NCBI GenBank assembly: GCA_003649205.1
Contig: QMRC01000002.1
Span: 96,001-160,000, forward strand
Direction: 5' to 3'
Source: Thermoprotei archaeon
Lineage (GTDB): Archaea > Thermoproteota > Thermoprotei > Thermoproteales > B15-G16
DNA: 64,000 nt
In this document: piece after piece, positions 1 through 55,065 of the stretch
Numbering within the stretch: position 1 is the first letter of the stretch
Layout: every line of letters starts with the position of its first letter
The notes under the pieces: model-generated
Told to the model about the DNA's origin: nothing
Databases searched by the model: none
The model's input: only the letters and a program-made list of their open reading frames with translations
Translations under genes and position numbers: made by a program

Positions 1-2
1 AA

Positions 3-254
3 CAAGGAATAATCTCACCCGAACTAGCCCAAGAACTCTACAAATTCATTACCTGGAGAAACATACTGGTACACAGATACATCGAAATAAACTACTCAAA
101 ACTATACGAAGACTCAAAGAAACTAACTACCATTGTAAGAGAGTTCGAAAAACAAATAATCAAGCTCAAGGAAAAGCACGAAGAAACCAAACACAACAAA
201 CCACAACAACAGCCACATAACCCCCAAGAGATTTCACAAAGCAAAAAGTACTGA
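3..254 (+). CDS. HepT/DUF86-type HEPN ribonuclease, C-terminal part (5' end outside window)
   Basis: Manual translation QGIISPELAQELYKFITWRNILVHRYIEINYSKLYE contains the HEPN RxxxxH motif (RNILVH). Stop TGA at 252-254. Not in the ORF track. Confidence 0.75.
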   Translation, partial: QGIISPELAQELYKFITWRNILVHRYIEINYSKLYEDSKKLTTIVREFEKQIIKLKEKHEETKHNKPQQQPHNPQEISQSKKY

Positions 255-442
255 AGATATGGAAAACCACGCAAAATACCTCAGATAAGTAATCAAATAC
301 ACAAGAGAAAGACTGAGAGAAAAGAACTAACAAAAACCAAAAATCAAGAACAGGAAACCTTCACAGTATGAGGGGATTAGCGGTAGAGACAACATAGCTT
401 ATAGAGGAGCGAAATCAATAATTTAGAGATGAGGGGGTAACA

Positions 443-1483
443 ATTCACGAAATTAAGTTCATAAACAGGGTACCAGAACTCAAAGCCTTAAGGGATTGGT
501 GCGCAAAACAGAGAACAACACCTCTCTACATCTACGGTCCTGAAGGCTGTGGAAAGACAAGACTACTGAGAGAATTCATCAAGAAATTCAATGAGTACTT
601 CGGAGATGACGCAATTGCAGTATACATCGATGCACTAGAGAGAAGCTCAGTAGAGAAAGCCATACTAACGTCGAGATCCGTGAAACTAGCTACAGAAACC
701 CTCGAGAAAATAATCGAGAAATTCTCCGGTCTAAGCGTTGGAAGAATTCTCGCTGAATCAATAACATCAATACTCGAAAAAGCAATCATAAAGAAGAAAC
801 TCGAAGACAACTACATCCTCATAGCAATCGACGACATAACCAGAGCACTTGGCCTCCAACAAATTGAGTGGTACATCAAGTGGCTTTACGAACTCCTATG
901 GAAGATCAGAGAAGAGTACAGACCAAAAGCCATAAACATAATAGTAACGACATCGGAAGGAACCAGCCTAAAATTAGTATCAAGACACAGACACGCACAC
1001 ATCACACTACTATGGAACCTACCCAAAGAAGCATTTAAAGAACTCTTCCACGAACTAAAACCACCAAACAACACAGAATTCGAACAAGTATGGAAACTAC
1101 TAGGAGGAAACCCAGGAAGACTAATTGAACTAGCTGAAGAATACAACTGGAACCTCGAAAAATGGCTCAATAACCTCATGAAGAGACTAAAACCACTCGC
1201 CGAAGAAATCGCTAGAAGAGGACTAATCAAAGAACTGAAACAACTAATCGAAGACCCCGACAACGTATGGTACAAAGCATCCCCCAAAATAGGTGAACTA
1301 TACGACCTCCTAGTAGAAAACAACGTATTCATGTACAAAGGATTCACAACACTAAACGAAACCGAAATACCCAAAGACCCAGAACTCGGAATCGGACAAG
1401 ACTACACATGGCAAATACCCGCATACAGATACATACTAGACAAACTACTCAAAAACAAAACAACAACCCCCACACAAACCTAA
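443..1483 (+). CDS. Archaeal P-loop ATPase (ATPase_2-like, GPEGCGKT family), paralog 1
   Basis: The frame of ORF 680-1483 is open back to 422 and contains KFINR and Walker A YGPEGCGKT. Walker B IAIDD, GGNP and a C-terminal WQIPAY follow. Start placed at ATT 443 by alignment with paralog 2. Confidence 0.85.
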   Translation: MHEIKFINRVPELKALRDWCAKQRTTPLYIYGPEGCGKTRLLREFIKKFNEYFGDDAIAVYIDALERSSVEKAILTSRSVKLATETLEKIIEKFSGLSVGRILAESITSILEKAIIKKKLEDNYILIAIDDITRALGLQQIEWYIKWLYELLWKIREEYRPKAINIIVTTSEGTSLKLVSRHRHAHITLLWNLPKEAFKELFHELKPPNNTEFEQVWKLLGGNPGRLIELAEEYNWNLEKWLNNLMKRLKPLAEEIARRGLIKELKQLIEDPDNVWYKASPKIGELYDLLVENNVFMYKGFTTLNETEIPKDPELGIGQDYTWQIPAYRYILDKLLKNKTTTPTQT

Positions 1484-1598
1484 AAGAAGACATAACCCTA
1501 GACCTCAACCAAACGAAAAATCCTCAGCAAGAAACAAGACCTAAAAAGTACCATAGCTACTACCTACCAAAACAGAGAAGACAACTCAGGGGAACAAA

Positions 1599-2588
1599 GT
1601 GATAGAGCTAAAGTTCGTAAATAGAGAAGAAGAATTAAAGACATTACATGAATTAGCAAATAAAGGAACAACACTACCAATCTACCTCTATGGACCAGAA
1701 GGTTGTGGAAAGACAAGACTACTAAAGGAATTCATAAAGAAAGTCAATGGGGTAGCCCTGTACATAGACGCACTTGAGGGTGAAGACCCAGAGAAGGCAC
1801 TACTCACAACACCACTAAACATACTCACCGACATAGTGAAAGATTTGATTAAAGAAGTAGCAAAACCTGTAGGACAATACCTATGCCTAAGTCTATGGAA
1901 AATACTCAAACACATAGAAACCAAACTACAGATAAGAGGTAAACCCCTAATCATAGCTGTAGACGACATCACAAGAGCAATAGGTCTAAGTAAAGTCGAG
2001 TGGTACACAAAGTGGCTATACGAACTAATTAAGAAACTACAGGAAGACTATCGACCAAGTTCCATTTTAATCATAGCAACAACAAGCGAAGGCAAGAGCC
2101 TAGACCTAGTAATGAGACACACATACACACACATCAACCTAGTATGGAACCTAGACAAAGAAGCCCACCAAGAACTAATACAACAACTAAAACCACCAAA
2201 AAACATAGACCCAGAACAACTCTGGTACTACACAGGAGGAAACCCAAGAGCAACAATCGACATAGCAGAAAACAACTGGAACATAGATAGCTGGATCCAG
2301 AAAATAGAGGCAAAACTAAGACCACTCATCAGAACCATAAGAAGCCTAAACCTAACCAATGAACTACAGAAACTAATCGAAGATCCAGACAACATAGAAA
2401 AACAACCATCACAAAAAATGGAACAACTCTACACAATACTCGTAGAAGCAAACCTATTCATGTACAAAGGATTCAGAACAATAAACGGAAAACACATACC
2501 TAAAAACCCAGAACTAGGAATAGGAGAGTACTACGCATGGCAGATACCAGCATATAAGCACGCACTAGAGCAACTACTACAGAGATAA
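1599..2588 (+). CDS. Archaeal P-loop ATPase, paralog 2
   Basis: KFVNRE, YGPEGCGKT, IIAVDD, TTSEG, TGGNPR, AWQIPAY. Confidence 0.9.
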   Translation: MIELKFVNREEELKTLHELANKGTTLPIYLYGPEGCGKTRLLKEFIKKVNGVALYIDALEGEDPEKALLTTPLNILTDIVKDLIKEVAKPVGQYLCLSLWKILKHIETKLQIRGKPLIIAVDDITRAIGLSKVEWYTKWLYELIKKLQEDYRPSSILIIATTSEGKSLDLVMRHTYTHINLVWNLDKEAHQELIQQLKPPKNIDPEQLWYYTGGNPRATIDIAENNWNIDSWIQKIEAKLRPLIRTIRSLNLTNELQKLIEDPDNIEKQPSQKMEQLYTILVEANLFMYKGFRTINGKHIPKNPELGIGEYYAWQIPAYKHALEQLLQR

Positions 2589-2683
2589 CAGTAGAATTCA
2601 CTACCTATGTAGCGGATAAAACCAATCATAAGGCTTCACACACCTAGAATCATCCACCCCACCATTAATCCTCCCAGGAACAA

Positions 2684-2901
2684 TCAACGAATCATTCCAA
2701 GACCCTCAACCACAACCACATTAAGATAAACATCATTCAACTTCAGCAAATAGTACACAGCACCCATCTCATCAACGTAAACTTCACTAGGACCACCCAA
2801 AACTCTCTCAAGAACACGAACAAACCCCCTCAAAAATTCTCAACACCTAACACACTTAAAACATCCCTATGCCTCTTTACCACATGTAAATAAAGCCTAT
2901 G
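2684..2901 (-). pseudogene. Frameshifted remnant of a small RelE/BECR-like toxin or nuclease
   Basis: Reads HVVKRHRDVLSVLGVENF, then after a frameshift FVRVLERVLGGPSEVYVDEMGAVYYLLKLNDVYLNVVVVEG. A nucleotide homolog lies at 49370-49500. Confidence 0.45.
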
Positions 2902-3047
2902 AGAAATCACTACATTACACCACCAACAAGAAACCTCAGAACACAACACCCAACAACCAAAGACAACACATATCCAAAAAGAGTTAAGTCTAAGCCAGGA
3001 AAAGAAACCAGAAAGAGGAAACTAAGTTACAAAATGAGGCTTAAGAC

Positions 3048-4070
3048 ATGAGTACAGAACCCAAGTTCGTCGACAGAGAATACGAACTAAAGACCCTGGA
3101 AGAACTATCGAGAAGAGACCTACCAACACCACTCTACATCTACGGTCCTGAAGGCTGCGGAAAGACAAGACTACTGAGAGAATTCATAACAAACTTCAAC
3201 GGAATAGGAATCTACATAGACACACTAGAGAGAACCAACATAGAGAAAGTACTAACAGTAAACCTAGCAATACCAGAGCTAAGAGAGTACATAGTGTCAA
3301 TAGCCAAGGAATACCTCGGAAACATAGGACTAATCCTCGCACAAAAACTATACACAGTACTAGAGAAAATAGCCACAAAATACAAACTAAAAGGCAAAAA
3401 CCTCGTAATAGCTGTCGACGACGTAACACAAGTACTCGGAATACACGAAATAGAACGCTACATGAAATGGCTCTACGAAGCAATAACCAAGATAAAACAA
3501 GAATACAGACCAGAATCAATACTCATACTAGTAACAACATCAGAAGGACAAAGCCTACAAAGAATAATAAGACACACCTACACCAAAGTAAACCTACTAT
3601 GGAACCTACCAAAAGAAGCCTTCACACAACTAGCAAATCAACTACAACCACCAGATAGAGACACAGTAGAGAAAACCTGGGAACTAACAGGAGGAAACCC
3701 AAGAAGACTAATCGAAATAGCTAAATGGTACAGATGGAACATAGACCAATGGCTAGAAGACCTAAAAGAAAACATAAGAGACGTAGCTAAAACAGCAATA
3801 AAACTCAACCTAGTAGAAGAACTAATCAAAGTAATCGAAAACCCAGACAACATAGATGTAGTAACAACAGAGAAAATGGAAAGACTCTACAAAATCCTAC
3901 TCGAAAGAAACCTAGTAATCTACACAGGAATACCACTACTACAATCATGGACAACAAAACAAAGACACCTAACACCCAACACCAAACTAGGAATAGGAAG
4001 ATACTACTCATGGCAAATACCAGCATACAAATACGCACTAAAACAACTACTACAGAAACAACACCACTAA
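3048..4070 (+). CDS. Archaeal P-loop ATPase, paralog 3
   Basis: KFVDRE, YGPEGCGKT, VIAVDD, TTSEG, TGGNPR, SWQIPAY. Confidence 0.9.
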   Translation: MSTEPKFVDREYELKTLEELSRRDLPTPLYIYGPEGCGKTRLLREFITNFNGIGIYIDTLERTNIEKVLTVNLAIPELREYIVSIAKEYLGNIGLILAQKLYTVLEKIATKYKLKGKNLVIAVDDVTQVLGIHEIERYMKWLYEAITKIKQEYRPESILILVTTSEGQSLQRIIRHTYTKVNLLWNLPKEAFTQLANQLQPPDRDTVEKTWELTGGNPRRLIEIAKWYRWNIDQWLEDLKENIRDVAKTAIKLNLVEELIKVIENPDNIDVVTTEKMERLYKILLERNLVIYTGIPLLQSWTTKQRHLTPNTKLGIGRYYSWQIPAYKYALKQLLQKQHH

Positions 4071-4389
4071 CACCCACCCCTTAGAAAAAGAACACCAATA
4101 ACCGATAGTTTATGTCAAGACACACCAAATCCCTAAGACATACAAGACCTAATCTAAGAACCTCCAACAAACAAAGAAAACAATTAGACAAAACACAAAA
4201 TCCCAACCCAAAGAGAAGACACTAAGCACACAACAACAAGAGAAAACACTCTCAACACTAAACCCTAAGAAGGTACCCACAAGAACCAAAGAAGACCTAC
4301 TAGCAATAGAAAATACAGCATCAGAAGCTCAAAAAGTAATCCAAAGAGTAGAGAAAGAATTAACTCAAAGAATTCTTAAAATCTTAGAC

Positions 4390-4653
4390 ATGGTGCTTTC
4401 AGGTAAGCTCACTCGAGAAGAAGCAACAAAGATATTCCTAAAACTCTACACATCAGCTACAGTACCTAACTGGCTAGAAGAACTACTAGGTAACCTCATA
4501 CTAATCGATGAACCAGAGGAACACGCCGGCTTATCAGAGCAAGAACTAAAGCAAATAACACAGAAACTACGCGAAAGAGCAAAAACACAGCAAAACCAAG
4601 ACAACTCCACCACCAAAAGACAAAAACCACTACCCGACGAGACTACTGACTAA
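4390..4653 (+). CDS. Hypothetical protein (frame open further upstream)
   Basis: Protein-like helical composition, no recognised motif. Confidence 0.4.
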   Translation: MVLSGKLTREEATKIFLKLYTSATVPNWLEELLGNLILIDEPEEHAGLSEQELKQITQKLRERAKTQQNQDNSTTKRQKPLPDETTD

Positions 4654-4821
4654 GTAACAACACTCAAAGCTACAGAGCACCTACATAGTCTGAGGCTATG
4701 AATACTGCTCTACGGTATCTATACCTCGTGGGGTAGCCTATGAGGAGATTCATAGGGTTGATCAGAGATCACAGGACTAAGATTGGAAGGATCGTTGCTA
4801 AGAGAGTGAGTGTGCGTAGCT

Positions 4822-5247
4822 ATGGTCGTGAGAGTGAGGATAAGGATAGAGAGGAGCGGAAAGGTTGTTGAAACTAGCGCCCTAGCAAATAGCAGTTACG
4901 AAGCTGAAACACCACAGCTACTGATACCCATTCGCCTTGCTGAAACCTTGGGCCTGTGGCCTCCTACAAAGGAGCTTACGGAGACCGTGTATGAGACTGC
5001 TGGTGCCCCACTCAGAGTATGGATAGCTCCAAGAGCGTGTAGAGTCAGGGTCATAGCTGAAGATACTGAGTCCCCCGATGTCATAGCCGATGCAGTGATC
5101 TCACCGATAGCAGACGAGGTTCTCAGCGATAAGCTCATCAGCAAGCTTCAGATAGCGTTAGAAGATGTAGAAGAAGGACTATGGAGATTCCGATGGGAAC
5201 CAAGAGACAAGCTGAGACGCAGCGAACCACCCAAGCTCTGGAAATAG
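4822..5247 (+). CDS. Retropepsin-like (clan AA fold) crenarchaeal protein
   Basis: VETSALANSSYEAETPQLLIP and ADEVLSDKLIS resemble the ALVNSG-type variant of the aspartyl-protease fold. Confidence 0.6.
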   Translation: MVVRVRIRIERSGKVVETSALANSSYEAETPQLLIPIRLAETLGLWPPTKELTETVYETAGAPLRVWIAPRACRVRVIAEDTESPDVIADAVISPIADEVLSDKLISKLQIALEDVEEGLWRFRWEPRDKLRRSEPPKLWK

Positions 5248-5321
5248 CCCATTACTATCGACACCTCACCTCATAGATTATAAGGCTTTCTAGAGTTTTA
5301 GAATAGTTAGGTAGAACTGGT

Positions 5322-5834
5322 ATGAGTGAGGAGAACTCTAGCTTCAATACAGTAACTCTAAAACTCCCTAGTATCATCATGGAGAAACTCAAGGATGTAG
5401 GAGTTGACGTAGAATCGCTAATAATTGATTTAATTGTAGACAATCTAAACCTTAAACCAGAGGAGGAACTTGAAGTTCATAGGGAACTAGCTAGAAGGTT
5501 CCTAGAGGAAGGTATGAAGCTCATCGATGTAAATCCTGTACAAGCAAGTGAGAAGCTATACAAAGCAGCTGAGGAAGCTGTGAAGACACTTGTACTCAAA
5601 CACAGGCTACGCAGCATAGTGGAAAGAGTTGAGAAACGTGGTAGGTGGAAAGTAGAAGACCTCTTCGACGCTATTAGTGAGTTGAGACAGATCTACAGCG
5701 ATGACATTAGGAGGTGGTGGGACTCTGCATGGAATCTCCATGTATGGGGATTCCATGAGGCGAAGGCTACGAAGAGGTACGTGGAAGAAAGGATCCGTGA
5801 TGTAGAGGAGCTGGTAAAGCTAGCTATAGAATGA
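5322..5834 (+). CDS. PaREP1 family (HEPN-like) protein
   Basis: VQASEKLYKAAEE and AWNLHVWGFHE. Confidence 0.9.
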   Translation: MSEENSSFNTVTLKLPSIIMEKLKDVGVDVESLIIDLIVDNLNLKPEEELEVHRELARRFLEEGMKLIDVNPVQASEKLYKAAEEAVKTLVLKHRLRSIVERVEKRGRWKVEDLFDAISELRQIYSDDIRRWWDSAWNLHVWGFHEAKATKRYVEERIRDVEELVKLAIE

Positions 5835-5975
5835 GGCTCAGCAGTACATATGCATAGTCTACAGAAGATGGTGATGAGATGCGAAGCTCTATCAATACAT
5901 GACTTTAGCGCTGATATAGCGCCATAGATAAGTTTGATGAGGTGCAACCAAGTCATAGATACGGGTGTGAGCTTG

Positions 5976-6506
5976 ATGGAAGCCATCTACGTCCCTAAGA
6001 AGCTTGTTGATGAAGCTAGGAAGATGGGTATCGACATAAGCGAACTCGTACTGAATGCTATCGCTAACGTGCTTGATTTAGATCCAAGTGAAGTTGCTTC
6101 TGCTAGGCTTGAGCTTGCTGAGAAATCTCTTGAAGAAGCTAGAGAGTTCATCAAGCAGAGAAATGCTGTTCAAGCGAGCGAGAAGCTGTACAAAGCCGTT
6201 GAGGAGTGCATCAAGGCATTAGCAGAGGTATTCAACGCTTCACAACTCAAAGAAGTTAGAAAGAGAGGAAAGTGGGATACATGGCTTCTCGGTATGGCTG
6301 CAACCGATCTCTCGAAAAGGCTCGGCGAAGAAAGGATTAGGTTAGCATGGAAAGACGCGTACGACATACATGTATGGGGTTTCCACGAAGCGAAGTACAG
6401 AGTAGAGGATGTGGAAGCAGCACTCCCACTAGCAGAGTGGTTGCTCAGCTACACGAAGCAAGTAATAAGTGAGAAGCTTAGAGAACATAAAGAGAAGCAA
6501 GAGTAG
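5976..6506 (+). CDS. PaREP1 family protein
   Basis: VQASEKLYKAVEE and AYDIHVWGFHE. Start moved to ATG 5976. Confidence 0.9.
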   Translation: MEAIYVPKKLVDEARKMGIDISELVLNAIANVLDLDPSEVASARLELAEKSLEEAREFIKQRNAVQASEKLYKAVEECIKALAEVFNASQLKEVRKRGKWDTWLLGMAATDLSKRLGEERIRLAWKDAYDIHVWGFHEAKYRVEDVEAALPLAEWLLSYTKQVISEKLREHKEKQE

Positions 6507-6514
6507 GTACATGA

Positions 6515-6910
6515 ATGAGCATGAGTACCTACGTAGAGAAGCTCATCCCTAGAAACTTAGTCATCGAGTCCTCTAGAGGTGCTCAAGTGAGGATCCATGT
6601 GATCGAGCAAGGTATCTGCAAGGAGGGAGCAACTAAGGAGATCGAGAACGAGCTAGAAGAACTCATCGGTAGCACAAAGCCAGACCTGCAGAGCATCACT
6701 AAGAAGATTGAGGAGAAGCTCCACACCGTGCTGACCAGCAAGCACAAGCTGCTGATCTACCTACCGCTCCTAAACCCGAGGACAAAGGCTAGAACACTCT
6801 GCAAAACCCTAAGAGAACTACTAGCAAGCAACGATACAAACACCCTACAACACAAACCCATTGAAATCCCACATATGAAATTGAAAGCTAGAGGTGTAGA
6901 GAATGTCTGA
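6515..6910 (+). CDS. Hypothetical protein
   Basis: 131-aa ORF directly after PaREP1, no motif recognised. Confidence 0.4.
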   Translation: MSMSTYVEKLIPRNLVIESSRGAQVRIHVIEQGICKEGATKEIENELEELIGSTKPDLQSITKKIEEKLHTVLTSKHKLLIYLPLLNPRTKARTLCKTLRELLASNDTNTLQHKPIEIPHMKLKARGVENV

Positions 6911-7067
6911 TCTGCTGACGCACTACACTATCAGCTACCTAGTTGCGAGCAGAGTGCTGAAACCGAGACACGCCTTATAAGCAGTAATATTCAGTCATAT
7001 ACAGGAGATGGTGAGCCCCAACGAGGAGGCAGGTCACGTAGCAAAGGTGGCTCCCCGAGGGGAGAGG

Positions 7068-7577
7068 ATGCTAGCTCTCAAAGCAAGGGCTGTTCTCGTC
7101 GAGGGAGACCTATACGACCTGTTCTCGGAGCTCTAGCCTCACTCGTAGGGAGGTGCAGAGGATTATCGACACGCTTTGGGAGCTGGATAAGTTACCAACA
7201 TTGAACCAGTGTCACCAGATGTTCTACAGGCAGCTAGAGAGAAGGGGTTCCGAGCACATCAAGCTAAGCAAATGTACAAGTATGGTCTCCCGCTCGTGAA
7301 ATCCGCAAAGAAGAATGGAGGCACTAAACCACTCCTCAAGAAGCTAAGCGTCAGGCTCGACAGGTACGATGCAAGCATAGACTTCAACACCTGGACGGCG
7401 ACAGTGAAGCTTAGGAACAAGACGTTCAAGCTAAAGCTACTGCATAGACGGAGCTACCTAGACAAGTTCAGGAGTAGGAAATGGTACGAGGTAGTCGTAA
7501 GGTGGTTACCTGGAGCGCAGGTAGAGGTTATTATCCCCTTCCGCTTCGAGCACCTAGCTAAGACCATGAAAAGATGA
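7068..7577 (+). mobile_element. tnpB: Degraded tnpB (IS200/IS605 OrfB) N-terminal fragment
   Basis: Pieces across a stop and frameshifts: MLALKARAVLVEGDLYDLF, RREVQRIIDTLWELDKLPTLNQCHQMFY, FRAHQAKQMYKY..KPLLKKLSVRLDRY. RuvC and Zn-finger half absent. Confidence 0.65.
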
Positions 7578-7850
7578 AGCTAGCAGAGAAAAGAAGTAAT
7601 AGTACTCACCGAACCAATCGATGAAGAGAACATGTAGAGAGCACGGTACTCAAAATGCAGGACATGGTACATGGCTAAAAACGAGCACTCCCATTTACCA
7701 TGTGGAGAGCCATCACATCACCATCAGCTACCCGCTCTACTCAATGCAGCGCGATGAAGATCCTCAATGAATACTCGTTGAAAGAACTGCATCCACACTG
7801 AGATACCATGAACCCATTTACAGCTAACAATACTGATGATAGCAACAGTC

Positions 7851-7866
7851 AGGAACCTATGGACAA
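7851..7866 (+). repeat. 16-nt direct repeat AGGAACCTATGGACAA (second copy 9369-9384)
   Basis: Exact match read from the sequence. Each copy lies about 55-60 nt upstream of a decayed gene start. Confidence 0.6.
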
Positions 7867-7927
7867 AGGAGCCGGTGTGGAGGAAGGAGCAAAAGTAACC
7901 TAATAGAGAGGATAGATTAGTAGAGAA

Positions 7928-8060
7928 ATGTTTGAGAAGAGCGTTACTATCAATGGCTTTAAGAGCATACGGGAAGGTAAGCTAGATGAATTTACAGAAA
8001 TAAACATCTTCGTATGTAGAAACAATACGGAGGAAGTCTACTGTACTCGAAGCTCCAACC
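7928..8060 (+). pseudogene. N-terminal remnant of an ABC/AAA_15-type ATPase
   Basis: INGFKSI..EINIFVCRNNT, then a 1-nt frameshift into KSTVLEA. Compare GRNNTGKSTVVEA of the intact gene at 39597. Confidence 0.7.
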
Positions 8061-8166
8061 CCCAAATAACCGCAGGAATACTACACCCCCATAAATCCAT
8101 AAATCCAGAAGAGGCAAAACTAGTACTAAGTCTGGAATCCAGGCACAGGAGGAGAGGGGCTAACCC

Positions 8167-8679: not shown

Positions 8680-8859
8680 AAGGTAAAGGTAAAAGACAGC
8701 ATATACCTAGCATACCGGTGAACACATGAAGACCACTAATCACCTTACAGTAAGCCCCCCACAAGCCCACGACAGTTATAGGACCAATAACCGATGAACT
8801 ATAACCTACCCAGATTCAAGGTAGCAACACAGCTCCTGAAGAGCACTAGAGCTAATCCC

Positions 8860-45099: not shown

Positions 45100-45269
45100 A
45101 GACAGACACCGTGGTCATCTACTGTAGACAACCTTAGAACCTCAGTTAAGTAGTTTCATTGTTGTGTAGTGAGATTGTAGAGCTATTGTTTTGGTGCGTA
45201 GTGTTGCTGGGTAAGGTATGTAAGTTTGATGTTGGGTATTTCCTCGACTTGGGGTCATTTTGTGTGTGG

Positions 45270-46464: not shown

Positions 46465-46638
46465 TTATTGGCACCACCTACATTGTGGTTGAAACTGTGG
46501 TTAATATTTCTTGAGTTGTCTTGAGTTGTGGTTCTGTGGGGTTTGTTTCCTTCTATGTGCTTGCTTAGCTTGGTTATGGTGGTTTGAAGGCTTGGTTAGG
46601 CGTTTGAAGGGGTGCTGTGCTAGGTTGGTGGTTCTTCT

Positions 46639-49528: not shown

Positions 49529-50536
49529 GTGGTGCTTATGATCGATCAAAGTACGAACTTCAAAATATACATCGAGGGTATAGGTAAGTGGATTAGCTTT
49601 GTTGATAGAGAGCGAGAGTTAAAGCAACTCATCAACCTAGCAACAAGAGGAAATCCATTCCCTATAGCCATATACGGACCTGAAGGTTGTGGAAAAACAA
49701 CACTACTGAAGTACTTGACCAAACAACTCAAACAACATGAAAACTACATAGCGATCTACATAGACGCACTAGAACAGCAAGATCTAGCGAAAGCCATAGC
49801 ATGCACACATCACGAACTATGGGAAGTAGTGACATCACTAGTCGCCATAACCCCTGTTGGAGAAAACCTAGCAAAATCAATCACCACAATACTTCGTAAA
49901 CTCCACGAAAAAATATCACTGAAAGGTAAGAAGGTAGTAGTCGTAGTAGATGATGTGTACAAAGCAATAGGACTCAACAATGTAGCAAGGTACACAAAAA
50001 TGCTCTATGAATGGGTTAATTACCTACACACAAACTTCAACGTAAGTACTGTGCTCTTCATACTAACAACGTCAGAAGGAGAATCGAAGAGAGAACTGTA
50101 TCGACACACCTACGTACACGTGTACATGATGTGGAACCTACCGAAGAAAGGACTTGAGGAACTAGCTAAGCAACTCGAAGCACCAATAGATATCGAAGCG
50201 CTGTGGAAACTAACAGGGGGGAACCCAAGAGCAGTAATAGACCTCGCAATACACAATTGGGATGTAGATAACTGGACGAAGTACATAGAACGAAAAGTAA
50301 CGTCAACAATACGCGACATAGATCCAAGAGAATTGAAGACCTTAGTAGAGGACCCAGATAGCAACTGGAGAATAGCTACCAAACTCGAAGAAAGAGGACT
50401 AATGATGGAACTCAACAGAGCACTAGTAATAGGAGAAGAACCAAACCCCAATCCAGAACTAGGTATAGGAAGAGAGTGGGCATGGCAATTACCAATCTAC
50501 AGACAAGTAATCGAGAAAATAGTAAGCAGTAAGTAA
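49529..50536 (+). CDS. Archaeal P-loop ATPase paralog
   Basis: FVDRERE, YGPEGCGKT, VVVDD, TGGNPR, WAWQLP. Confidence 0.9.
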   Translation: MVLMIDQSTNFKIYIEGIGKWISFVDRERELKQLINLATRGNPFPIAIYGPEGCGKTTLLKYLTKQLKQHENYIAIYIDALEQQDLAKAIACTHHELWEVVTSLVAITPVGENLAKSITTILRKLHEKISLKGKKVVVVVDDVYKAIGLNNVARYTKMLYEWVNYLHTNFNVSTVLFILTTSEGESKRELYRHTYVHVYMMWNLPKKGLEELAKQLEAPIDIEALWKLTGGNPRAVIDLAIHNWDVDNWTKYIERKVTSTIRDIDPRELKTLVEDPDSNWRIATKLEERGLMMELNRALVIGEEPNPNPELGIGREWAWQLPIYRQVIEKIVSSK

Positions 50537-50639
50537 GACAACACCTCTAAAACCTCAAATCCTGAAGAGCATCACAGCATCACTGTCAACAAACAAACTT
50601 AAGTCTTCGTCTACGTCAATTAATGTATGGTGTCTACGT

Positions 50640-50870
50640 ATGAGTGAGGTACTAAGTATACGGATTCCTCGTGAACTTAAGAAGAAGATGGAAGAGCTGA
50701 AGAATTTCGTCGATTGGAAACAAGAAATCATCAAGTTCCTGGAAGAACGTGTCAAGTACTACGAGAAGCAGCGTGTCCTTAAGGAAGTGAATGAAATCAT
50801 CAAGAGACATCCAAGACTCCCTAAGGGTACTGCTATAGAGCTCGTGAGGGAAGATCGTGATAGTCATTGA
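50640..50870 (+). CDS. vapB: VapB antitoxin
   Basis: MSEVLSIRIPRELKKKM..VDWKQEI..LVREDRD. Confidence 0.88.
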   Translation: MSEVLSIRIPRELKKKMEELKNFVDWKQEIIKFLEERVKYYEKQRVLKEVNEIIKRHPRLPKGTAIELVREDRDSH

Positions 50871-51267
50871 TGCATCTGCACTAGCTAAGTACATCCTAGG
50901 AGAAGAGCAGTGGGAAACAGTAGCTCAGTACCTAGAGCAGGAGAGGGTACTCACACTAGGTATGGCATTAGTTGAGGTGCTAAACGTAGTGAGAAAAGCA
51001 GTACACATCCACAAACTACTCAGTAGGGATGTAGCACGTGAAAAGTACCTAGCACTAAAGAAACTCGTAGAGAATGAAGTCATAGAAGTGGAGAATGAGG
51101 TAAAGTACCTTGAAAAAGCCTTCAACCTTGCTCTCAGCACCGGGATTACCGTCTATGATGCACTATACATCGTACAGGCAATGGAACACAAAACACAACT
51201 ACTCACCAGCGACCGAGGACAAGCAGAAGTAGCAAAGAACCTCGGTGTAACAGCAGTAATCGTATAG
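50857..51267 (+). CDS. vapC: VapC PIN-domain toxin
   Basis: VIDASAL, ITVYDALY, LLTSD. Confidence 0.9.
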   Translation: MIVIDASALAKYILGEEQWETVAQYLEQERVLTLGMALVEVLNVVRKAVHIHKLLSRDVAREKYLALKKLVENEVIEVENEVKYLEKAFNLALSTGITVYDALYIVQAMEHKTQLLTSDRGQAEVAKNLGVTAVIV

Positions 51268-51631
51268 CACTCAAACCCCCCTACACAGGACCCCACCAGC
51301 ACCCTACAGATCCAACCCAATACCTCAACACTCCAGCAACATTGATGCACTAGAGCATACTACTCACCCCCACCAATAACCAACTCATAGAAAGCAGAAC
51401 ACTGATTCTCAGAGCACCCTCAGAACAGAGTTACTCATGCTACCACCATCAAGATCTTACCCAACACACCACCCTCACCAAGCACATACACAAAGCACCT
51501 CAACCCCGAAACCAACGTCTCAACACAGGTAATTACTCTACCATACCTTTCCTCAATCTATGACTTGTTGACAAGATGTTCGTTGAACATTTATAAGGCT
51601 CCGTGCTACGTAATGTGTCACGGGATTGTGC

Positions 51632-51850
51632 ATGAGTACTGTGATACATGTCCGTGTACCTAGGTATGTAAAGGAGAAACTTGAGAAGTATGGTGTGAAC
51701 ATATCGGAAGAGGTAAGGCGTTTCCTTGAAGAGAGATTACGTCAGTTAGAAGCTCAGAAACTAGTGGAGGAACTTAGGAAGCATCTCGAGAGTATGCCTA
51801 AGGTAGGTGATAGTGTTCCACTAATTCGTGAAGATCGTGAAACTCGCTAG
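51632..51850 (+). CDS. vapB: VapB antitoxin
   Basis: MSTVIHVRVP..VNISEEVRRFLEE..LIREDRE. Confidence 0.88.
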   Translation: MSTVIHVRVPRYVKEKLEKYGVNISEEVRRFLEERLRQLEAQKLVEELRKHLESMPKVGDSVPLIREDRETR

Positions 51851-51856
51851 CAACAT

Positions 51857-52285
51857 ATGGCTGTACTAGACTCATCATTCATCGTGAAACTAGTTATTCA
51901 CGAACCGTACAGCGAAGAAGCACTTAATCTCTTCAGGAAACTCACTACATCTGGAGAGAAGCTACGTACACCATGCATAGCTCTAGCTGAGGTCCTCAAT
52001 GCTATCTGGAAACATACTGTACTACTCAAAGATCTTGATCAGAGTCAGGTAGGGAATGTACTTAGGTACCTAACTTCTCTCTGGCGATTACTTCATGTTC
52101 ACCCAATCGATGAACTTGCTGAGAATGCTCTAAATGTAGCCACTAGGTTAGCAATTACAGTATACGACGCATTCTACATAGTCCTAGCACTACAGTACAG
52201 AGAAGTGCTCTACACCTTTGACAGAAAGTTAGCAGCTAAGGCGAAGGAGGTAGGTGTAGAGACTGTGGTACCATCTGAGTCTTAA
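51857..52285 (+). CDS. vapC: VapC PIN-domain toxin
   Basis: VLDSSF, EVLNAIWK, ITVYDAFY, YTFD. Confidence 0.9.
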   Translation: MAVLDSSFIVKLVIHEPYSEEALNLFRKLTTSGEKLRTPCIALAEVLNAIWKHTVLLKDLDQSQVGNVLRYLTSLWRLLHVHPIDELAENALNVATRLAITVYDAFYIVLALQYREVLYTFDRKLAAKAKEVGVETVVPSES

Positions 52286-52399
52286 TTGGGACTACCTCCT
52301 AAAACCATACAGGTAACTCACCTTAGAGGTTAGGGAGAGAGACTGAGTAAGCTTGCTCTTGTCACTAGTACCTTAAGTACCTACCTCAATTGTTGAGAG

Positions 52400-52590
52400 A
52401 GCACTAGAGGGAGAGATTCGTAGAGTTAGACTTCGGCAAATTCAGTATCTTTGGTTGTTACTCTATCACCTATGACATCTGGTTTCTCGGCTATGGTGAT
52501 GTATACGAGGTTCTTGATGGTACCTATGTCGAGTAGGGTTTGTACTTTGGCTTTACTGTCCTTTACTGGAGATACTGTGCCTATTATCAT
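52400..52590 (-). pseudogene. Degraded retropepsin-like remnant
   Basis: KVQTLLDIGTIKNLVYITIAEK (from ALVDTGA..IAEKL). Confidence 0.4.
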
Positions 52591-52595
52591 CTGGT

Positions 52596-53135
52596 TTATG
52601 TGATTGGTTCTTTCTCAATTCCTGTTCTGTTTTGAGTTTGTGCTAGTTGTTGTGTTTTCTTGAGGAGTTGCTCTATATCTGGTAGGCTTGCTTTGACTTG
52701 GTCTATTGTTAGTGCTGCTTCGTGGAACCCCCATACATGTAGGTCGTACGCGATGCTCCATCCTCGGTTTATGGTTGGTTCGTTTAGTTTTGTAGTGAGT
52801 GTTTTTGCTGCTTTGGATAGTAATTTTGTCCACCATTTACCTTCTCTATGTGCTTCCTGTGCTTCTGGAATGTTGAATTTTGTGGCTAGTGCTTTTACGC
52901 ATTCTTCAGCTACTTTGTATAGTTTCTCACTTGCTTGTACTGCATTGCCTTTTTCTAGGTATTCTCTAGCTTCTTGCATGAATTTTCTAGCTAGTTCGAG
53001 TCTTGCTTCAATTTCTTCGTTGGGATTACAGAGTTTGTGAGTGAGTATGTCGATGATGTATGTTTCTGGATCGGTGCTTTGTTCCCTTAGTTTTTTCAGG
53101 TAGCTTTCTAGGTAGTTTCAGGGTTATGCTATGTG
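52596..53135 (-). pseudogene. PaREP1 family gene with an N-terminal frameshift
   Basis: VQASEKLYKVAEE and YDLHVWGFHE. The N-terminal ITLKLPRKL is out of frame at the T6 tract 53091-53096. Confidence 0.8.
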
Positions 53136-53162
53136 ACGTGGAGGTTGCCTCTAGGTGTTTCG

Positions 53163-53720
53163 TTATTTCCTTTCTTCTAAGTCTCCTCTTTCTCTTCGTA
53201 GGATTGCTTTTAGTGTGTATGTTACGATCCAGAGCTTGGCTGCTTCTTCGCACCCGTCCTCCATGAGCCATCTCTTCGCTATCTCCATGATCTTATCTAG
53301 CTTGCTTAGGTCTATCTCCTTTGGATCTTTCTCCCTAATTTCTCTCACGACCTCTAGTATGAATTTAACTTCCTCTGGTTTTAGCGGGTTTAGTGCTGTT
53401 TTATGTGCTGTTGCTAAGCGTTCGATTTCTCTTAGGAGGTATTCTCTTTCCTCGGGTGTGAAGAGCTTTTTCATTGTCATGAAGTCTATTAGGTGTGTAT
53501 GGAGTGAGTGTATGAGTGAGGTCACTGTTCTGGCGCTACTTCTAATCTCTTGTCTTAGTTCCTTTAGTCTTTCATCTATTTTTCTGAATTTGTTGTCTAT
53601 TTCCTCGAACTTCATGTCTATTGACGCAAATTTTCTACCTAGCCAGTAGGCTAGGGATATCACCGAGATTACCACTGTGAGAAGCGTGCTGATAATTCCT
53701 GTAAGTACGTACATTTCCAT
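53163..53720 (-). CDS. Membrane-anchored coiled-coil protein
   Basis: TM segment, YWLGRKF and ID.KF repeats. Paralog at 48288-48897. Confidence 0.8.
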   Translation of the reverse strand: MEMYVLTGIISTLLTVVISVISLAYWLGRKFASIDMKFEEIDNKFRKIDERLKELRQEIRSSARTVTSLIHSLHTHLIDFMTMKKLFTPEEREYLLREIERLATAHKTALNPLKPEEVKFILEVVREIREKDPKEIDLSKLDKIMEIAKRWLMEDGCEEAAKLWIVTYTLKAILRRERGDLEERK

Positions 53721-54348
53721 GTTCTCTACTTGAGCTGTGTTTAATGATTCTCCTAAGTATGTTACTGTGCTTCTCTCTTAAATGTCAGTATTTTGGTCTA
53801 CGTTGTTTCTCTGTACCTGGTGTTGATTCGTAGTTTTCCCTAGTTTCATCTATGGTTTCGTTGTTCAGTTAGGCGTAACTTCTTCATCGTTCTGTTGTGG
53901 GCTGGATTCATCATCTTTTCGTTGGTCTCTGTTCTCTGGTGTCAGTACCCGGTATCGGCTTAATCATCGATGATCATCTTAGTCCTCCTTCATCATCGTT
54001 AACCTTTGTGTCTCTGTGGGGGTTTTATGGCGTTCTTCGTTTCTTGACTCTTTGTTGCTTCTTTGCTTTTCCTCTACAGGTAACTCATAGTGTTTCTTAC
54101 CTCTGTTCTGAGGTTTCGCTATGTTTCTTTCTCTTTTCTTGATGTTATTTTGCTTTTTGTTCTCTTTCTTCTGAGTTTTTGGTTTTGTGGCTGAGTGGTG
54201 TGCTTCTTTGTGGTTTTCCCTGAGGTGTTGTTGCTGTGATTGTTTTGAGTAAGGGTTTTGTAGTTGTTTTGTTGTTGGTTACTGTGGTGATGATGCTTCC
54301 CGGGGAGCGTCCGATTGGTGATGAGTACGGTGCCTACTGACTGCTCTT

Positions 54349-55065
54349 TTAACTTGTTGGGAGGAGGTACTTGAGTAGGTTTATTGCTATGTTTAGTATC
54401 TTCTTCTCTGCTCTTCTAAGATCTTTTGCTATTGCTGACTTAGATACCTTCAGCATTGATGCTAGTTCTGTTAGGTTTACCTTTCTTGGGTATTCGTAGT
54501 AGCCTTTGCTTATTGCTGTGAGTAGGACTTTGTTTTGTGTCTTTGTTAGTGCATATTCGTTGACTATGGATGTTAGGTCTAGTAGTAGGAATGGGTTCAT
54601 TAGCTTTGCTAGCATGACTATGTCCTCAGGTCTCACTCTTGTGCTTTTGCATATCTTAACGTCGTTGTACTCTTTGAGTGTTGATAGGATTTCTGCTTCT
54701 TGCTTGCTATTTACTGATAGGAGGAACCAATCCTCTAGTCCTTCCTGTGTGAAGAGTGGTCTCAGTATTGCTAGTGGTTTATCCCATATACACTTTATTG
54801 CGTGTGTTGGTTTGCATACTAGCTCTAGTGCGCTCGTGTCTTTGCTTCTCCATAGTACGCCTACCTTCTTGACATTTAGTTTCTTGAATGTATCGATTAT
54901 TTCGTGTATGTCCCTGTTCCTATGGAGTACAACCATCTGTACATAGAGTCTTTCTTCGTCGATTACTCTTGAGTCTATGACATAGACCCCTATGTTGTCG
55001 AACTTCTCAGAGATAGATATAACAGGGCAATCTGGCTGCCACATCTTTATCAATGTTAGCCTCAT
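54349..55065 (-). CDS. Bacterio-opsin-activator-type (HTH_10) transcriptional regulator
   Basis: LTKTQNKVLLTAISKGYYEYPRKVNLTELASMLKVSKS..LRRAEKK. Confidence 0.88.
   Translation of the reverse strand: MRLTLIKMWQPDCPVISISEKFDNIGVYVIDSRVIDEERLYVQMVVLHRNRDIHEIIDTFKKLNVKKVGVLWRSKDTSALELVCKPTHAIKCIWDKPLAILRPLFTQEGLEDWFLLSVNSKQEAEILSTLKEYNDVKICKSTRVRPEDIVMLAKLMNPFLLLDLTSIVNEYALTKTQNKVLLTAISKGYYEYPRKVNLTELASMLKVSKSAIAKDLRRAEKKILNIAINLLKYLLPTS

Follow-up and report, generated by a model that had tools for sequence, protein, structure and literature searches.

In bacteria and some archaea the leading strand of replication is G+T-rich and the composition flips at oriC, the usual explanation being deamination of the exposed lagging-strand template. 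The heavy and light strands of animal mitochondrial DNA are asymmetric as C-to-T and A-to-G changes build up on the strand that is single-stranded for long, and transcription-associated asymmetry appears as a jump in skew at transcription starts, with mutation of the non-template strand.

The archaeal skew mosaic described here has the same pair of skews as replication asymmetry and the same AC-to-GT polarity at its flip, but it is several-fold larger (0.4-0.8 at third positions), patchy at about 1-45 kb rather than replichore-wide, and has no Orc1/Cdc6 gene or origin repeats at the flip, with about 80% of the genome neutral. Its magnitude at silent sites is comparable with that of mitochondrial DNA and, in the window (the whole stretch of 64,000 nucleotides that was analysed), it is likewise independent of gene direction; however, in mitochondria the asymmetry extends over one entire small replicon and goes with its mode of replication, whereas here a mosaic of two polarities lies in a 2-Mb chromosome. 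Like transcription-associated asymmetry, it weakens from 5' to 3', changes sign at divergent promoters and mostly leaves the coding strand rich in G+T (76%), but it does not track expected expression, and both the window and the cas locus of contig C1 have genes on both strands that share one sign.

The closest published counterpart of the mosaic is the bacterial GRINS. As described in the main text of that paper (PMC8256042), GRINS are duplicated regions of > 500 bp that share > 80% identity with a second region in their gene cluster, and they are linked to gene conversion. Their GC and TA skews are intense and rise and fall together (r = 0.70); single-strand deamination or tautomer mispairing was proposed as the mechanism. 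As far as that description goes, the likeness lies in the correlated skews (0.63 here), the G+T or C+A stretches, the abrupt sign changes and the recoding of proteins at synonymous sites. The archaeal patches differ in being unique in sequence (at best, the window matches other parts of its genome at 65-75% identity), in lying over ordinary core and accessory genes and in reaching tens of kb; the word 'archaea' is absent from the main text of the GRINS paper.

Strand skew in the window

Keto skew, (G+T-A-C)/N, was computed per kb along the window (Table 1), which lies on the 323-kb contig C2. The + strand was 64% A+C at 1-21.4 kb (keto skew -0.274 for the whole block 1-21400, z = -40; -0.25 to -0.50 per kb over most of 1-21 kb) and 62% G+T at 27.8-47 kb (+0.240 for the whole block 27800-47000, z = +33; +0.17 to +0.49 per kb at 28-34 and 36-43 kb), with a dip to only +0.07 to +0.14 at 34-36 kb. 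The strong, patchy change from A+C to G+T described in an earlier note was thus verified, as were its four example patches at 10930-11480 (76.1% A+C, z = -12), 17170-18060 (77.3% A+C, z = -16), 28930-29350 (82.4% G+T, z = +13) and 32150-32450 (82.1% G+T, z = +11). Its placing of the switch at 21.5-27.5 kb also held, the cumulative skew of the whole contig having a single V-shaped minimum there (window 23,665 to 26,942). The A+C block at the window start extends upstream to about C2:74 kb. By gene content, this part of C2 is an island of defence and glycosylation functions.

Table 1. Features of the window (positions 1 to 64,000)
Position	Strand	Feature	Skew or support
1-4600		A+C block over three ATPase_2 genes	keto -0.29 to -0.42 per kb
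680-1483 (fragment), 1599-2588, 3048-4070	+	ATPase_2 genes	Pfam, E = 1e-28 to 1e-45
4800-10800		Weakly skewed to neutral interruption	keto -0.01 to -0.26 per kb
5322-5834, 5934-6506, 8167-8679		PaREP1-family genes	Pfam, E = 4e-29 to 1e-35
10900-11500		Short, very strong A+C patch	76% A+C
13600-21400		Strongest A+C block	keto -0.28 to -0.50 per kb
14269-15405	-	ATPase_2 gene	Pfam
15492-17258	-	588-aa gene	paralogues by tblastn, E = 1e-9 and 3e-11
17625-19064 (GT2), 19272-20387 (GT4), 20380-21309 (GT2)	+	Glycosyltransferase genes	Pfam; third-position skew -0.62 to -0.75
21600-27700	+	Neutral low-GC core between polarities	keto -0.024 (21600-27600); GC 0.345-0.382 (about 35%)
21485-21898 (fragment), 21966-22685		Methyltransferase fragment and gene (entered with the neutral core)	
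27800-40000		G+T block, genes on both strands	keto +0.18 to +0.49 per kb, apart from 34-36 kb (+0.07 to +0.14)
29660-30142; 36764-37162 (PaREP1)	+	Genes in G+T block	Pfam
33065-34957	-	HD-domain gene in G+T block	Pfam
39531-40835	+	AriA/PtuA/GajA-like ATPase gene, start inside G+T block	Pfam, PADLOC
45000-47000		Further G+T patch, partly common to G001	keto +0.34 and +0.29
52400-54900		G+T patch kept in same-genus genome G001	keto +0.309

Inside the window the skew was independent of gene direction, as the earlier note had it, with Pfam-supported genes on both strands showing one sign per block. In the A+C block the third-position skew of the + strand was -0.61 to -0.78 for + strand genes (ATPase_2 at 680-4070; GT2, GT4 and GT2 at 17.6-21.3 kb) and -0.48 and -0.66 for the - strand ATPase_2 and 588-aa genes; in the G+T block (27800-40000) the gene values were +0.68, +0.45 (the - strand HD gene) and +0.43 (a + strand AAA_15/21 gene). 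A/C made up 85-90% of the bases at silent positions of + strand genes, whereas for a family member on the - strand of this A+C block the coding strand was 73% G/T at silent positions. The opposite amino-acid shifts that had been claimed were confirmed in ATPase_2 paralogues: the K/N/T/Q/H/P fraction was 0.32-0.33 for an A+C coding strand vs 0.15 for a G+T one, and the G/V/W/C/L/F fraction 0.27 vs 0.41.

An old, context-free mutational footprint

In Pfam-supported genes the skew was strongest at third positions (-0.61 to -0.78), weaker at first (about -0.25) and weakest at second (about -0.1). It was present at third positions and outside ORFs on either side of the switch (-0.414 and -0.162 respectively at C2:45-117.4 kb; +0.438 and +0.251 at C2:123.8-143 kb). 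Third positions of the A+C class (A.53, C.27, G.14, T.06) were the complement of those of the G+T class (T.52, G.29, C.10, A.09), the self-complementary contig C3 being counted twice in this composition and the correlations that follow, as well as in the context odds and in the G000 bin, neighbour-sign, patch, junction and 5'-to-3' tallies below. GC3 was unchanged (correlation of |k3| with GC3, -0.05), the GC and TA skews co-varied across genes (r = 0.63), and the A/T skew matched or exceeded the G/C skew. The strong, patchy, strand-specific mutational process postulated earlier is borne out by these features.

Odds of T:C and G:A at third positions were raised 2.3- to 4.0-fold in G+T-rich-coding genes and shifted to 0.14-0.59 in A+C-rich-coding genes, in each case with every 5' and 3' neighbour, so that no sequence-context preference was seen across all neighbours at third positions. 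Over 48,635 bases aligned between this genome (G000) and G001, the one other genome of the genus, the patch skews were nearly the same (-0.373 and -0.356; +0.389 and +0.387 respectively), and divergence was 4.2-4.3% in patches and 6.7% in neutral DNA, counted over all sites and not silent sites alone. Most variants in two public runs were transitions (348 vs 51 for X1, 218 vs 33 for X2); a single X2 contig (16176-16467) carried at least ten C>T changes on one strand relative to the window. The footprint is thus mutational, old, context-free, independent of orientation in the window and of outward polarity. Its freedom from context, its maximum at silent sites and its equilibrium state mark it as a long-term strand-asymmetric transition pressure, and not as the work of a burst, a motif-specific deaminase, selection or misassembly.

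Relatives outside the genus show a far weaker footprint. The standard deviation of keto skew in 500-bp bins was 0.153 in G000 and 0.112 in G001, vs 0.055-0.107 in seven genomes taken one from each of seven other genera of the order. The same patches are present in G001 at about 95% identity: 46049-46626 has a match at 98.6% identity, and 49944-56734 is aligned by one G001 contig (C16) at 94% identity, with differences of no clear lineage-specific direction. For Nre, k3 was 0.57 in G000 and 0.56 in G001, whereas 28 homologues from other genera averaged 0.09. Related glycosyltransferase copies were unskewed (two G020 loci, +0.06 and -0.005; metagenome contig L087, +0.03); therefore the skew arose only after these copies had split off, and no skewed donor passed it on.

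Genome-wide mosaic and possible causes

Although the earlier note had confined the process to this accessory region, about 19.5% of the 2.07-Mb genome lies in skew patches, of which the window holds the largest block. Core genes are included, among them RNase HII, OMP decarboxylase, diphthamide-synthesis genes, Nre and a GTP_EFTU-family gene (k3 +0.51). Patches have a median length of about 1 kb, most being gene-sized, and meet at 84 opposite-sign junctions.

At somewhat less than even confidence, we tentatively favour a cause in which DNA opens again and again, outward from discrete points, and the strand so exposed undergoes heat-driven deamination. A transition bias that differs between the strands and has lasted long would change A to G and C to T on one strand wherever selection allows, turning that strand G+T and its partner A+C; in a hot-living archaeon it could arise by hydrolytic deamination of repeatedly single-stranded DNA, adenine becoming hypoxanthine and cytosine becoming uracil. 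The affected strand would be set locally, the exposed strand running 5' to 3' away from the starting points, and outward exposure would give AC-to-GT flips, mostly in A/T-rich DNA between divergent genes. In the window the starting point would be the junction at about 21.4-27.7 kb, later split by a recent insertion of 5.3-6 kb, with a left arm of at least 43 kb and a right arm of about 20 kb, both crossing genes on either strand. The opening may come from a DNA-synthesis or unwinding process other than a canonical Orc1/Cdc6 origin.

The flip in the window has the polarity of most sharp flips in the genome. AC-to-GT flips outnumbered the reverse 30 to 9 with a window of 200 and a threshold of 0.2 (p = 0.001), 37 to 9 with 500 and 0.15, and 12 to 1 with 500 and 0.2. 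The excess was only a trend for larger patches (8 vs 2, p = 0.11) and disappeared for flips with 1-kb flanks (18 vs 15), which counts against outward opening. All three CRISPR loci had an A+C flank on the left and a G+T flank on the right. Adenine deaminates spontaneously far more slowly than cytosine does. Three observations sit poorly with deamination: divergence is lower in patches than in neutral DNA, although extra damage should if anything raise it; the A/T skew is no weaker than the G/C skew despite the slower deamination of A; and UDG, EndoV and NucS, which are expected to remove such damage, are all present.

Somewhat unlikely, in our judgement, is a transcription-linked cause, in which the non-template strand is deaminated in bubbles or R-loops, or the template strand is preferentially repaired. 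The earlier claim that the skew ignores transcription direction stood within the window but not genome-wide, where the G+T-rich strand was the coding strand in 247 of 324 ORFs with |k3| >= 0.3 (76%), a count in which C3 enters twice and which, like all the ORF-based counts, may take in wrong-strand ORFs, because two-letter DNA keeps both strands open. Same-strand neighbours agreed in sign 91 to 16. Transcription would also fit the intergenic AC-to-GT flips, 15/27 of which lay between divergent genes (background 18.5%), the enrichment of flip junctions in A/T-rich words, and the fall of skew within genes from 5' to 3' (0.15 to 0.06 in all ORFs; 0.60 to 0.40 where the coding strand is G+T-rich), the flanks of the latter genes losing their skew within 1 kb. 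Likewise, the C4 CRISPR array owes its A+C flank to real - strand Cas6 and AsnC genes. Gene-sized patches and the 76% of G+T-rich coding strands are more simply explained by transcription than by outward opening.

However, at least seven Pfam-supported + strand genes of the window carry the opposite sign, and at C2:74421-117309 18 consecutive ORFs (8 on -, 10 on +) share one + strand sign, the longest run in 2000 shuffles being 14. Opposite-strand neighbours were split 48 to 45 instead of being all opposite, and were correlated in the + strand sense (r = 0.455). In the cas locus of C1, Nre, Dph6 and Csa3 (-) lie with Csa1 and Cas1 (+) in one A+C block, so that the divergent Csa3 and Csa1-Cas1 share a sign. 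A+C-rich-coding genes lie in broad skewed surroundings and have no 5'-to-3' gradient. Expression level does not drive the skew: seven genes of classes that we take to be highly expressed were neutral or slightly opposite (among them EF1A -0.23, EF2 +0.03, thermosome -0.23 and +0.04, RpoB +0.01). In the window, transcription would have to run outward in long transcripts over both arms. Those of the left arm would be antisense to its + strand genes for ATPase_2 and glycosyltransferases, and antisense transcripts of 20-40 kb would be unusual.

It is unlikely that the flip is simply a junction of separately evolved blocks, by inversion of part of one uniformly skewed domain or by adjacent imports of already skewed DNA, with nothing acting there. 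The skew borders do match a strain-level border: in X2, the second sample, depth was zero at 22340-27675 with both flanks covered, cover resuming at 27,676. The region 1-42 kb is accessory, being found, paralogues aside, neither in G001 (71% complete) nor in 29 other relatives; the arms are roughly mirror images in gene strand vs skew, and sign changes between patches are common. On the other hand, related glycosyltransferase copies are unskewed, core genes are skewed too, and the polarity bias of sharp flips (30 vs 9, 37 vs 9) is not expected of random junctions. Inversion alone cannot make a one-sign domain with genes on both strands; therefore a domain-level process would still be needed. 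The neutral core, in which ORFs of 392 and 1274 aa had no family match in Pfam or PADLOC, is probably a strain-specific insertion; it is younger than the flanking skew, and therefore the present junction sequence cannot be the cause. One X1 contig (20243-24493) links the A+C block to the core with no differences, and an independent one spans 12647-17254 and 17260-20221, again with none; misassembly is unlikely, though less surely so at 24.5-28.85 kb.

Deamination and polymerase error would leave the same footprint, and sequence alone cannot separate them. In the latter, a strand copied afresh many times by a polymerase that tends to pair G with T would drift to G+T without damage, and the same correlated GC and TA skews, context freedom and outward polarity are predicted. 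NucS acts on G-T mismatches, and it is intact here. Y-family polymerases were found in none of 31 genomes, the two PolB genes are canonical, as in nearly all relatives searched, and no lineage-specific polymerase was found; we regard this cause as quite improbable. Error through tautomers is among the hypotheses in the main text of the GRINS paper (PMC8256042).

The organisation around an origin-like point suggested earlier was not upheld. A canonical chromosomal origin at 21.5-27.5 kb, with skew as ordinary leading/lagging asymmetry, would account for the AC-to-GT polarity and the single cumulative minimum of C2; we nevertheless regard it as very improbable. No Orc1/Cdc6 gene was found on C2, the two Cdc6_C matches of the genome (C1:220 kb and C14:41 kb) lying away from strong flips, and no ORB-like repeat clusters or tandem repeats were found at the junction. 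Moreover, the skew fades within about 20-45 kb, the core lacks cover in X2 and the genome has 84 opposite-sign junctions.

The repair defect or deaminase also proposed in the earlier note finds no support, UDG, EndoV and intact NucS being present as in relatives and the footprint lacking context preference. Bursts of hypermutation of foreign DNA by a sequence-specific deaminase or editing defence system, for which the defence and glycosylation setting, the same-strand C>T cluster of the X2 contig and a ComEB/dCMP-deaminase-like gene (relatives have cytidine deaminase) could be cited, are scarcely credible and largely refuted: that deaminase-fold protein resembles nucleotide-pool enzymes, below cut-off (ComEB, 132 bits vs 219), core genes are hit, patches are conserved between species, and the codon-position gradient with intact conserved domains indicates gradual change under purifying selection.

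The skew in the window is strong and ignores gene direction

Keto skew, (G+T-A-C)/N, was calculated on the + strand of the window (C2:96001-160000), and the strong, patchy A+C versus G+T skew claimed in the earlier note was evident in both polarities. Per-kilobase values ran from -0.25 to -0.50 across most of 1-21 kb and from +0.17 to +0.49 at 28-34 and 36-43 kb. The patches that had been singled out as examples were 76.1% A+C (10930-11480), 77.3% A+C (17170-18060), 82.4% G+T (28930-29350) and 82.1% G+T (32150-32450), and their raw sequence is near two-letter DNA. Each of them lies 11-16 SD from parity, the block 1-21400 lies 40 SD from it and the block 27800-47000 33 SD. The stretch between the blocks (21600-27600) was neutral, with a keto skew of -0.024, and low in GC.

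Because both strands of such DNA keep ORFs open, only family-supported ORFs were used to examine gene direction in the window. Within each block, such genes on both strands carried the same + strand sign (see the table), confirming that the skew in the window is blind to the direction of transcription. The skew was strongest at the third codon position, with approximately 0.25 at the first and 0.1 at the second. The predicted push on amino acid composition was also found, as the share of K/N/T/Q/H/P in ATPase_2 paralogues was 0.32-0.33 on one strand compared with 0.15 on the other. C and A have been lost jointly from one strand irrespective of gene direction, as in mitochondrial-type asymmetry. 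Judged by its gene content, the region appears to be a defence-type island, with the AriA/PtuA/GajA-like ATPase and HD-domain genes accompanied by PIN, PaREP1 and many ATPase_2 genes. In one 479-aa ORF the GT2 Pfam match starts at residue 152, and in the 150 codons at its beginning (17625-18077) every codon position is 78% A+C. This N-terminal part does not look truly coding, but like what is left of a decayed glycosyltransferase or an extension that stays open by chance.

Features of the window and of related loci (bare positions are those of the window; C1, C2 and so on are contigs; skew is that of the + strand at third codon positions)
Feature	Location	Strand	Skew	Remarks
ATPase_2 (three copies), GT2, GT4, GT2	A+C block	+	-0.61 to -0.78	
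ATPase_2	14269-15405, A+C block	-	-0.48	
588-aa gene	A+C block	-	-0.66	Paralogues present
Methyltransferase gene, 392-aa and 1274-aa ORFs	Neutral core			Latter two without family match
HD-domain gene, 630 aa	33065-34957, G+T block	-	+0.45	~4.6 kb upstream of the ATPase gene, opposite strand; weak dGTPase-like match
AriA/PtuA/GajA-like ABC-type ATPase gene	39531-40835, G+T block	+	+0.43	PADLOC E = 1e-19
ComEB/dCMP-deaminase-like gene	C2:45337-45948 (L112:5337-5948)			50 kb upstream of the window; 203 aa, C-terminal extension of ~55 aa
CRISPR array	C1:269684-271753			31 repeats
CRISPR array	C1:281171-282746			23 repeats
CRISPR array	C4:116612-121111			73 repeats
CRISPR array	C11:39660-43540			64 repeats

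The skew forms a genome-wide mosaic

The draft genome comprises 2,066,741 bases in 31 contigs at 43% GC, and its gene content (ATPase_2, a family described as 'predominantly from Archaea', PaREP1, Nre, Csa1 and Csa3) is in line with an archaeon. One contig outside the window, C3 (291,428 bases), reads the same on both strands, matching its reverse complement at 100% identity with p paired to 291,427 - p. Approximately 146 kb of the genome is present twice through this hairpin-type assembly artefact. C3 is counted twice in the bin statistics, the segmentation, the distribution of k3 (the keto skew of the coding strand at third positions) and the neighbour, context, gradient, purine-skew and GC/TA correlation counts below, and once in the sharp-flip counts and their gene-context analysis.

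Binned at 500 bases (4,117 bins), the genome had a keto-skew SD of 0.153, compared with approximately 0.045 expected by chance; 664 bins were above 0.2 and 257 above 0.3. Three-state segmentation gave 264 patches, 136 of them A+C-rich (10.8% of the genome) and 128 G+T-rich (8.7%), with a median length of approximately 1 kb and a maximum of 8.7 kb. Successive patches met at 51 M>M, 47 M>P, 45 P>P and 37 P>M junctions, 84 being of opposite sign. Among 1,278 ORFs of at least 200 aa the mean k3 was +0.10 (SD 0.25). GC and TA skews were positively correlated across genes (r = 0.63), and the composition of the A+C class was the complement of that of the G+T class, with GC3 unchanged.

The suggestion that the process acts on an accessory region was therefore not upheld, since patches occur genome-wide and core genes are hit as well as accessory ones. 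This follows from the well-supported core genes among the ORFs of skewed DNA, sets that may include wrong-strand ORFs. In 20 skewed loci plus the window, the coding strand was A+C-rich for ATPase_2, GT2, GT4, Csa1, Cas1, Cas2, HEPN, TGT and MoCF, and G+T-rich for RNase HII, OMP decarboxylase, two diphthamide-synthesis genes, NFACT, Nre, Cas6, HerA and BtpA.

A coding-strand layer and a domain layer

The mosaic consists of two layers, one linked to the coding strand and one made of domains that ignore it. The first was seen in ORFs with |k3| of at least 0.3, in 247/324 of which the G+T-rich strand was the coding strand. Where strongly skewed ORFs were neighbours on one strand, their signs agreed in 91 cases and differed in 16, and ORF skew fell from 5' to 3'. 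Sharp flips were AC-to-GT rather than the reverse by 30 to 9, 37 to 9 or 12 to 1, depending on window and threshold, and by 18 to 15 with 1-kb flanks. Among intergenic AC-to-GT flips, 15/27 lay between divergent genes, against a background of 18.5% of all neighbouring pairs. Purine skew was tried as a separate indicator of the coding strand and dropped because A versus T dominates it and couples the two skews: of 114 strongly skewed bins that also had purine skew, 104 were simply A-rich on one strand.

The domain layer was apparent from neighbours on opposite strands, which were not all opposite in skew (a 48 to 45 split) and, after subtraction of the mean coding bias, had + strand skews that correlated at r = 0.455. 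Genes with an A+C-rich coding strand had broad skewed surroundings, and one A+C block on C1 spans - strand genes (Nre, Dph6 and Csa3) as well as + strand ones (Csa1 and Cas1). The largest example of this layer is in the window: over C2:74421-117309 no change of + strand sign occurred in 18 consecutive ORFs (8 on the - strand, 10 on the + strand), whereas 2000 shuffles gave runs of at most 14.

The flip between the two polarities

The switch from A+C to G+T that had been placed at 21.5-27.5 kb was recovered on the scale of the contig. The cumulative skew of C2 (323 kb) has a single minimum, in the neutral core, at window positions 23,665 (non-ORF sites), 26,899 (third positions) or 26,942 (all sites). 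Third-position skew was -0.414 over C2:45-117.4 kb, -0.002 in the core and +0.438 over C2:123.8-143 kb, dropping beyond C2:143 kb to +0.128 and then to +0.029 in the last 163 kb. Both arms weaken with distance from the junction and are interrupted by neutral stretches.

In the core, the 392-aa and 1274-aa ORFs are adjacent on the + strand (23954-28957) in a 35%-GC block and have weak paralogues only. Neither had a match in Pfam or PADLOC, and no paralogues of these central ORFs were found at other flips. The final kilobase or so of the 1274-aa ORF enters G+T low-complexity DNA and may be non-coding. We compared the window with two public sequencing runs, as Logan contigs with contig-level depth. 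The run from a second sample had zero cover over 22340-27675 with both flanks present, suggesting that the two polarities were formerly approximately 1 kb apart and that the core is probably younger than the skew.

An assembly junction had been named as the alternative. It is unlikely, since contig depth was even across the junction (approximately 14-17 to either side) and one independent contig joins the A+C block to the core with no difference, although 24.5-28.85 kb was present in short pieces only, bridged by none of the contigs listed and with loose ends near 28,885. That depth and that contig, together with dependence on codon position and conservation in a second genome, show that the skew itself is no assembly chimera or damage artefact. 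A 293-nt contig of the second sample, at 16176-16467, had 21 differences from the window. In at least ten of them the window has C where the contig has T, always on one and the same strand, and the neighbouring contigs of that sample did not differ from the window, so that the strains show a strand-coordinated cluster of differences here. GGCC was found at none of 30 AC-to-GT switch points (0.6 expected). Across the whole genome GGCC (1,064 copies) and CCGG (1,155) are approximately four-fold below the composition expectation (~4,220), which would fit restriction-site avoidance.

Age and lineage of the skew

In the second genome of the genus (71% complete), several strongly skewed core-gene blocks were shared at approximately 95% identity. 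Over 48,635 aligned bases the patches were equally skewed in both genomes, that under study being slightly above the other. Divergence was 4.2-4.3% in patches compared with 6.7% in neutral DNA, and differences in the part aligned to the window comprised 546 transitions and 97 transversions. In A+C patches, C in our genome opposite T in the other outnumbered the reverse by 92 to 35, compared with 328 to 239 in neutral DNA.

Elsewhere the signal was lower. One genome from each of the seven other genera of the order, represented by 66-100 kb each, had a keto SD of 0.055-0.107 and 0-4% of bins above 0.2, compared with 0.112 and 7% in the second genome of the genus and a median SD of 0.14 in equal-sized subsamples of ours. 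The k3 of Nre was 0.57 and 0.56 in the genus and averaged 0.09 over 28 homologues outside it. As two of these 28 were near 0.45, other members of the order may have a weaker form of the skew. Copies related to the glycosyltransferase genes of the window were unskewed. For 1-42 kb, the second genome (71% complete) and 29 other relatives gave only weak or paralogous matches; when metagenomes were scanned with the GT4 protein, one short contig proved related (L087, of which 83 bp could be aligned) and three further contigs were distant. The paralogues within the genome were too diverged to polarize the changes (65-75% identity, many transversions).

What may produce the skew

To either side of the window flip, the strand that has lost A and C points away from the junction in its 5'->3' direction. 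Such an outward polarity is predicted alike by a replication-type bubble (on the lagging-strand template), by nick-started strand displacement or resynthesis and by divergent transcription, and DNA-end resection predicts the opposite. We tentatively favour, at rather less than even confidence, heat-driven deamination of a strand exposed by DNA opening that moves outwards, not from a canonical origin, because expression level fails to predict skew and genes on both strands are covered. Two results argue against simple extra damage as the model, namely the lower divergence in patches and the strong A/T component.

Transcription or R-loops is the main rival, a rather unlikely one for the skew as a whole; it is probably behind much of the gene-sized layer. 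Transcription would give a G+T-rich coding strand, but in the window seven Pfam-supported + strand genes have an A+C-rich one. Genes taken as highly expressed from their class alone (EF1A, EF2, two thermosome genes and RpoB) had k3 values of only -0.23 to +0.04, and with expression so assigned the skew is not driven by it.

The flip has the AC-to-GT polarity of a replication origin and lies at the minimum of cumulative skew, but a canonical origin was not found there. No Orc1/Cdc6 gene lies near the switch, the only Cdc6_C matches in the genome being at C1:220450-220728 and C14:40789-41058 and thus none on C2; 20500-30000 lacks clustered repeats, and tandem arrays are absent from its surroundings. 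Skew of one sign along each replichore is also absent, given 264 patches and 84 opposite-sign junctions.

A repair defect fared no better, as loss of UDG, EndoV or NucS does not explain the skew. A weak second UDG is shared with two other genera of the order, which are not patchy; the TAG within the NucS match is simply where an intact ORF of 254 aa ends; and the Y-family polymerase and PolB complement showed no lineage-specific difference. A motif-specific deaminase was ruled out by the lack of neighbour-base preference: odds shifts differed approximately twofold or less among contexts within each series, and those of T:C and G:A were similar for every neighbouring base. A hypermutation burst was ruled out by the order of codon positions (third far above first, first above second), intact Pfam domains and conservation of patches at approximately 95% between species; unlike APOBEC-, DddA- or SsdA-like hypermutation, the skew has neither neighbour preference nor a gene-inactivating burst. 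Outward unwinding of the Cas3 type through CRISPR self-targeting was discarded, as 0/186 spacers match the window beyond 23-27-nt partials at chance level.

The single lineage-specific gene difference found was a ComEB/dCMP-deaminase-like protein in both genomes of the genus (2/2), in place of the cytidine deaminase of relatives with a match (two checked); other genera have a gene of approximately 130 aa or, in two, no match. It scores under the ComEB cut-off, belongs to nucleotide metabolism and is no more than a lead.

A broader proposal, which we regard as speculative and rather unlikely, is that chromosomes of this genus carry an undescribed, local and recurrent one-strand exposure or resynthesis that proceeds outwards from discrete, easily opened sites for 1 to more than 40 kb and over evolutionary time rewrites every free position of one strand to G/T. 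The window flip would then be the largest of these sites in the genome, a zone within a defence/glycosylation island where replication, repair synthesis or unwinding is initiated without Orc1/Cdc6, and the bacterial skewed repeats called GRINS would represent this process in repeat-associated form.

Relation to published skews and implications

GRINS are the closest published phenomenon, with intense correlated GC and TA skews, abrupt changes and a cause described as unknown (PMC8256042). Like GRINS, the DNA studied here has mean absolute GC and TA skews above 0.15 that are positively correlated (for example, GC -0.365 and AT +0.596 at 17001-18000). GRINS are, however, duplicates of more than 500 bp and more than 80% identity at the same locus and are associated with gene conversion, whereas all non-self matches of at least 150 bp in a blastn search of the window against the whole genome were 65-75% identical, the ATPase_2 and PaREP1 paralogues being likewise highly diverged (65-75%). 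The main text of that paper does not mention archaea. Our literature search, which covered main texts, found no patchy keto/amino-skew mosaic described in archaea, nor did a term search of the main text of a 2026 archaeal-skew paper (PMC12999951).

The present mosaic extends the GRINS-type phenomenon from bacterial repeats to unique archaeal DNA, and so narrows the mechanisms to those with no need for repeats or gene conversion. If the footprint marks the places and the strand in which archaeal DNA is habitually single-stranded, plain sequence would map an unknown DNA transaction in organisms not yet brought into culture. Since both strands stay open in patches, gene callers can choose the wrong strand. 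Codon-usage and amino acid statistics are distorted, Lys/Asn/Thr/Gln/His/Pro differing two-fold by strand within one family; skew-based origin prediction gives false positives, and composition-based binning and detection of horizontal transfer can be misled.

CRISPR loci and repeat elements

The remaining two large AC-to-GT flips (on C1 and C4) and one on C11 have CRISPR arrays inside them, and all three CRISPR loci therefore share the AC-to-GT polarity. On C4 it is accounted for by real - strand genes with G+T-rich coding strands. The repeats are of two types, both with the end ATTGAAAG in the inferred sense. Near-full-length matches were obtained for 11/186 spacers on C8, C17, C20, C26 and C27 of the same bin, and because spacers match them these contigs are probably viral or plasmid DNA or proviruses. 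C8, which has no strongly skewed bins, also holds a sub-threshold family-B polymerase-like match (21 bits; C8:44244-44417) inside an 819-aa open frame that may encode a mobile-element polymerase. Finally, a repeat of approximately 90 bp was found at many contig ends of the second genome of the genus and at several sites of ours (L068:1802-1905, L076:6349-6436 and L076:14612-14726). Assemblies probably break at this sequence, which is likely to be a small mobile element or repeat.
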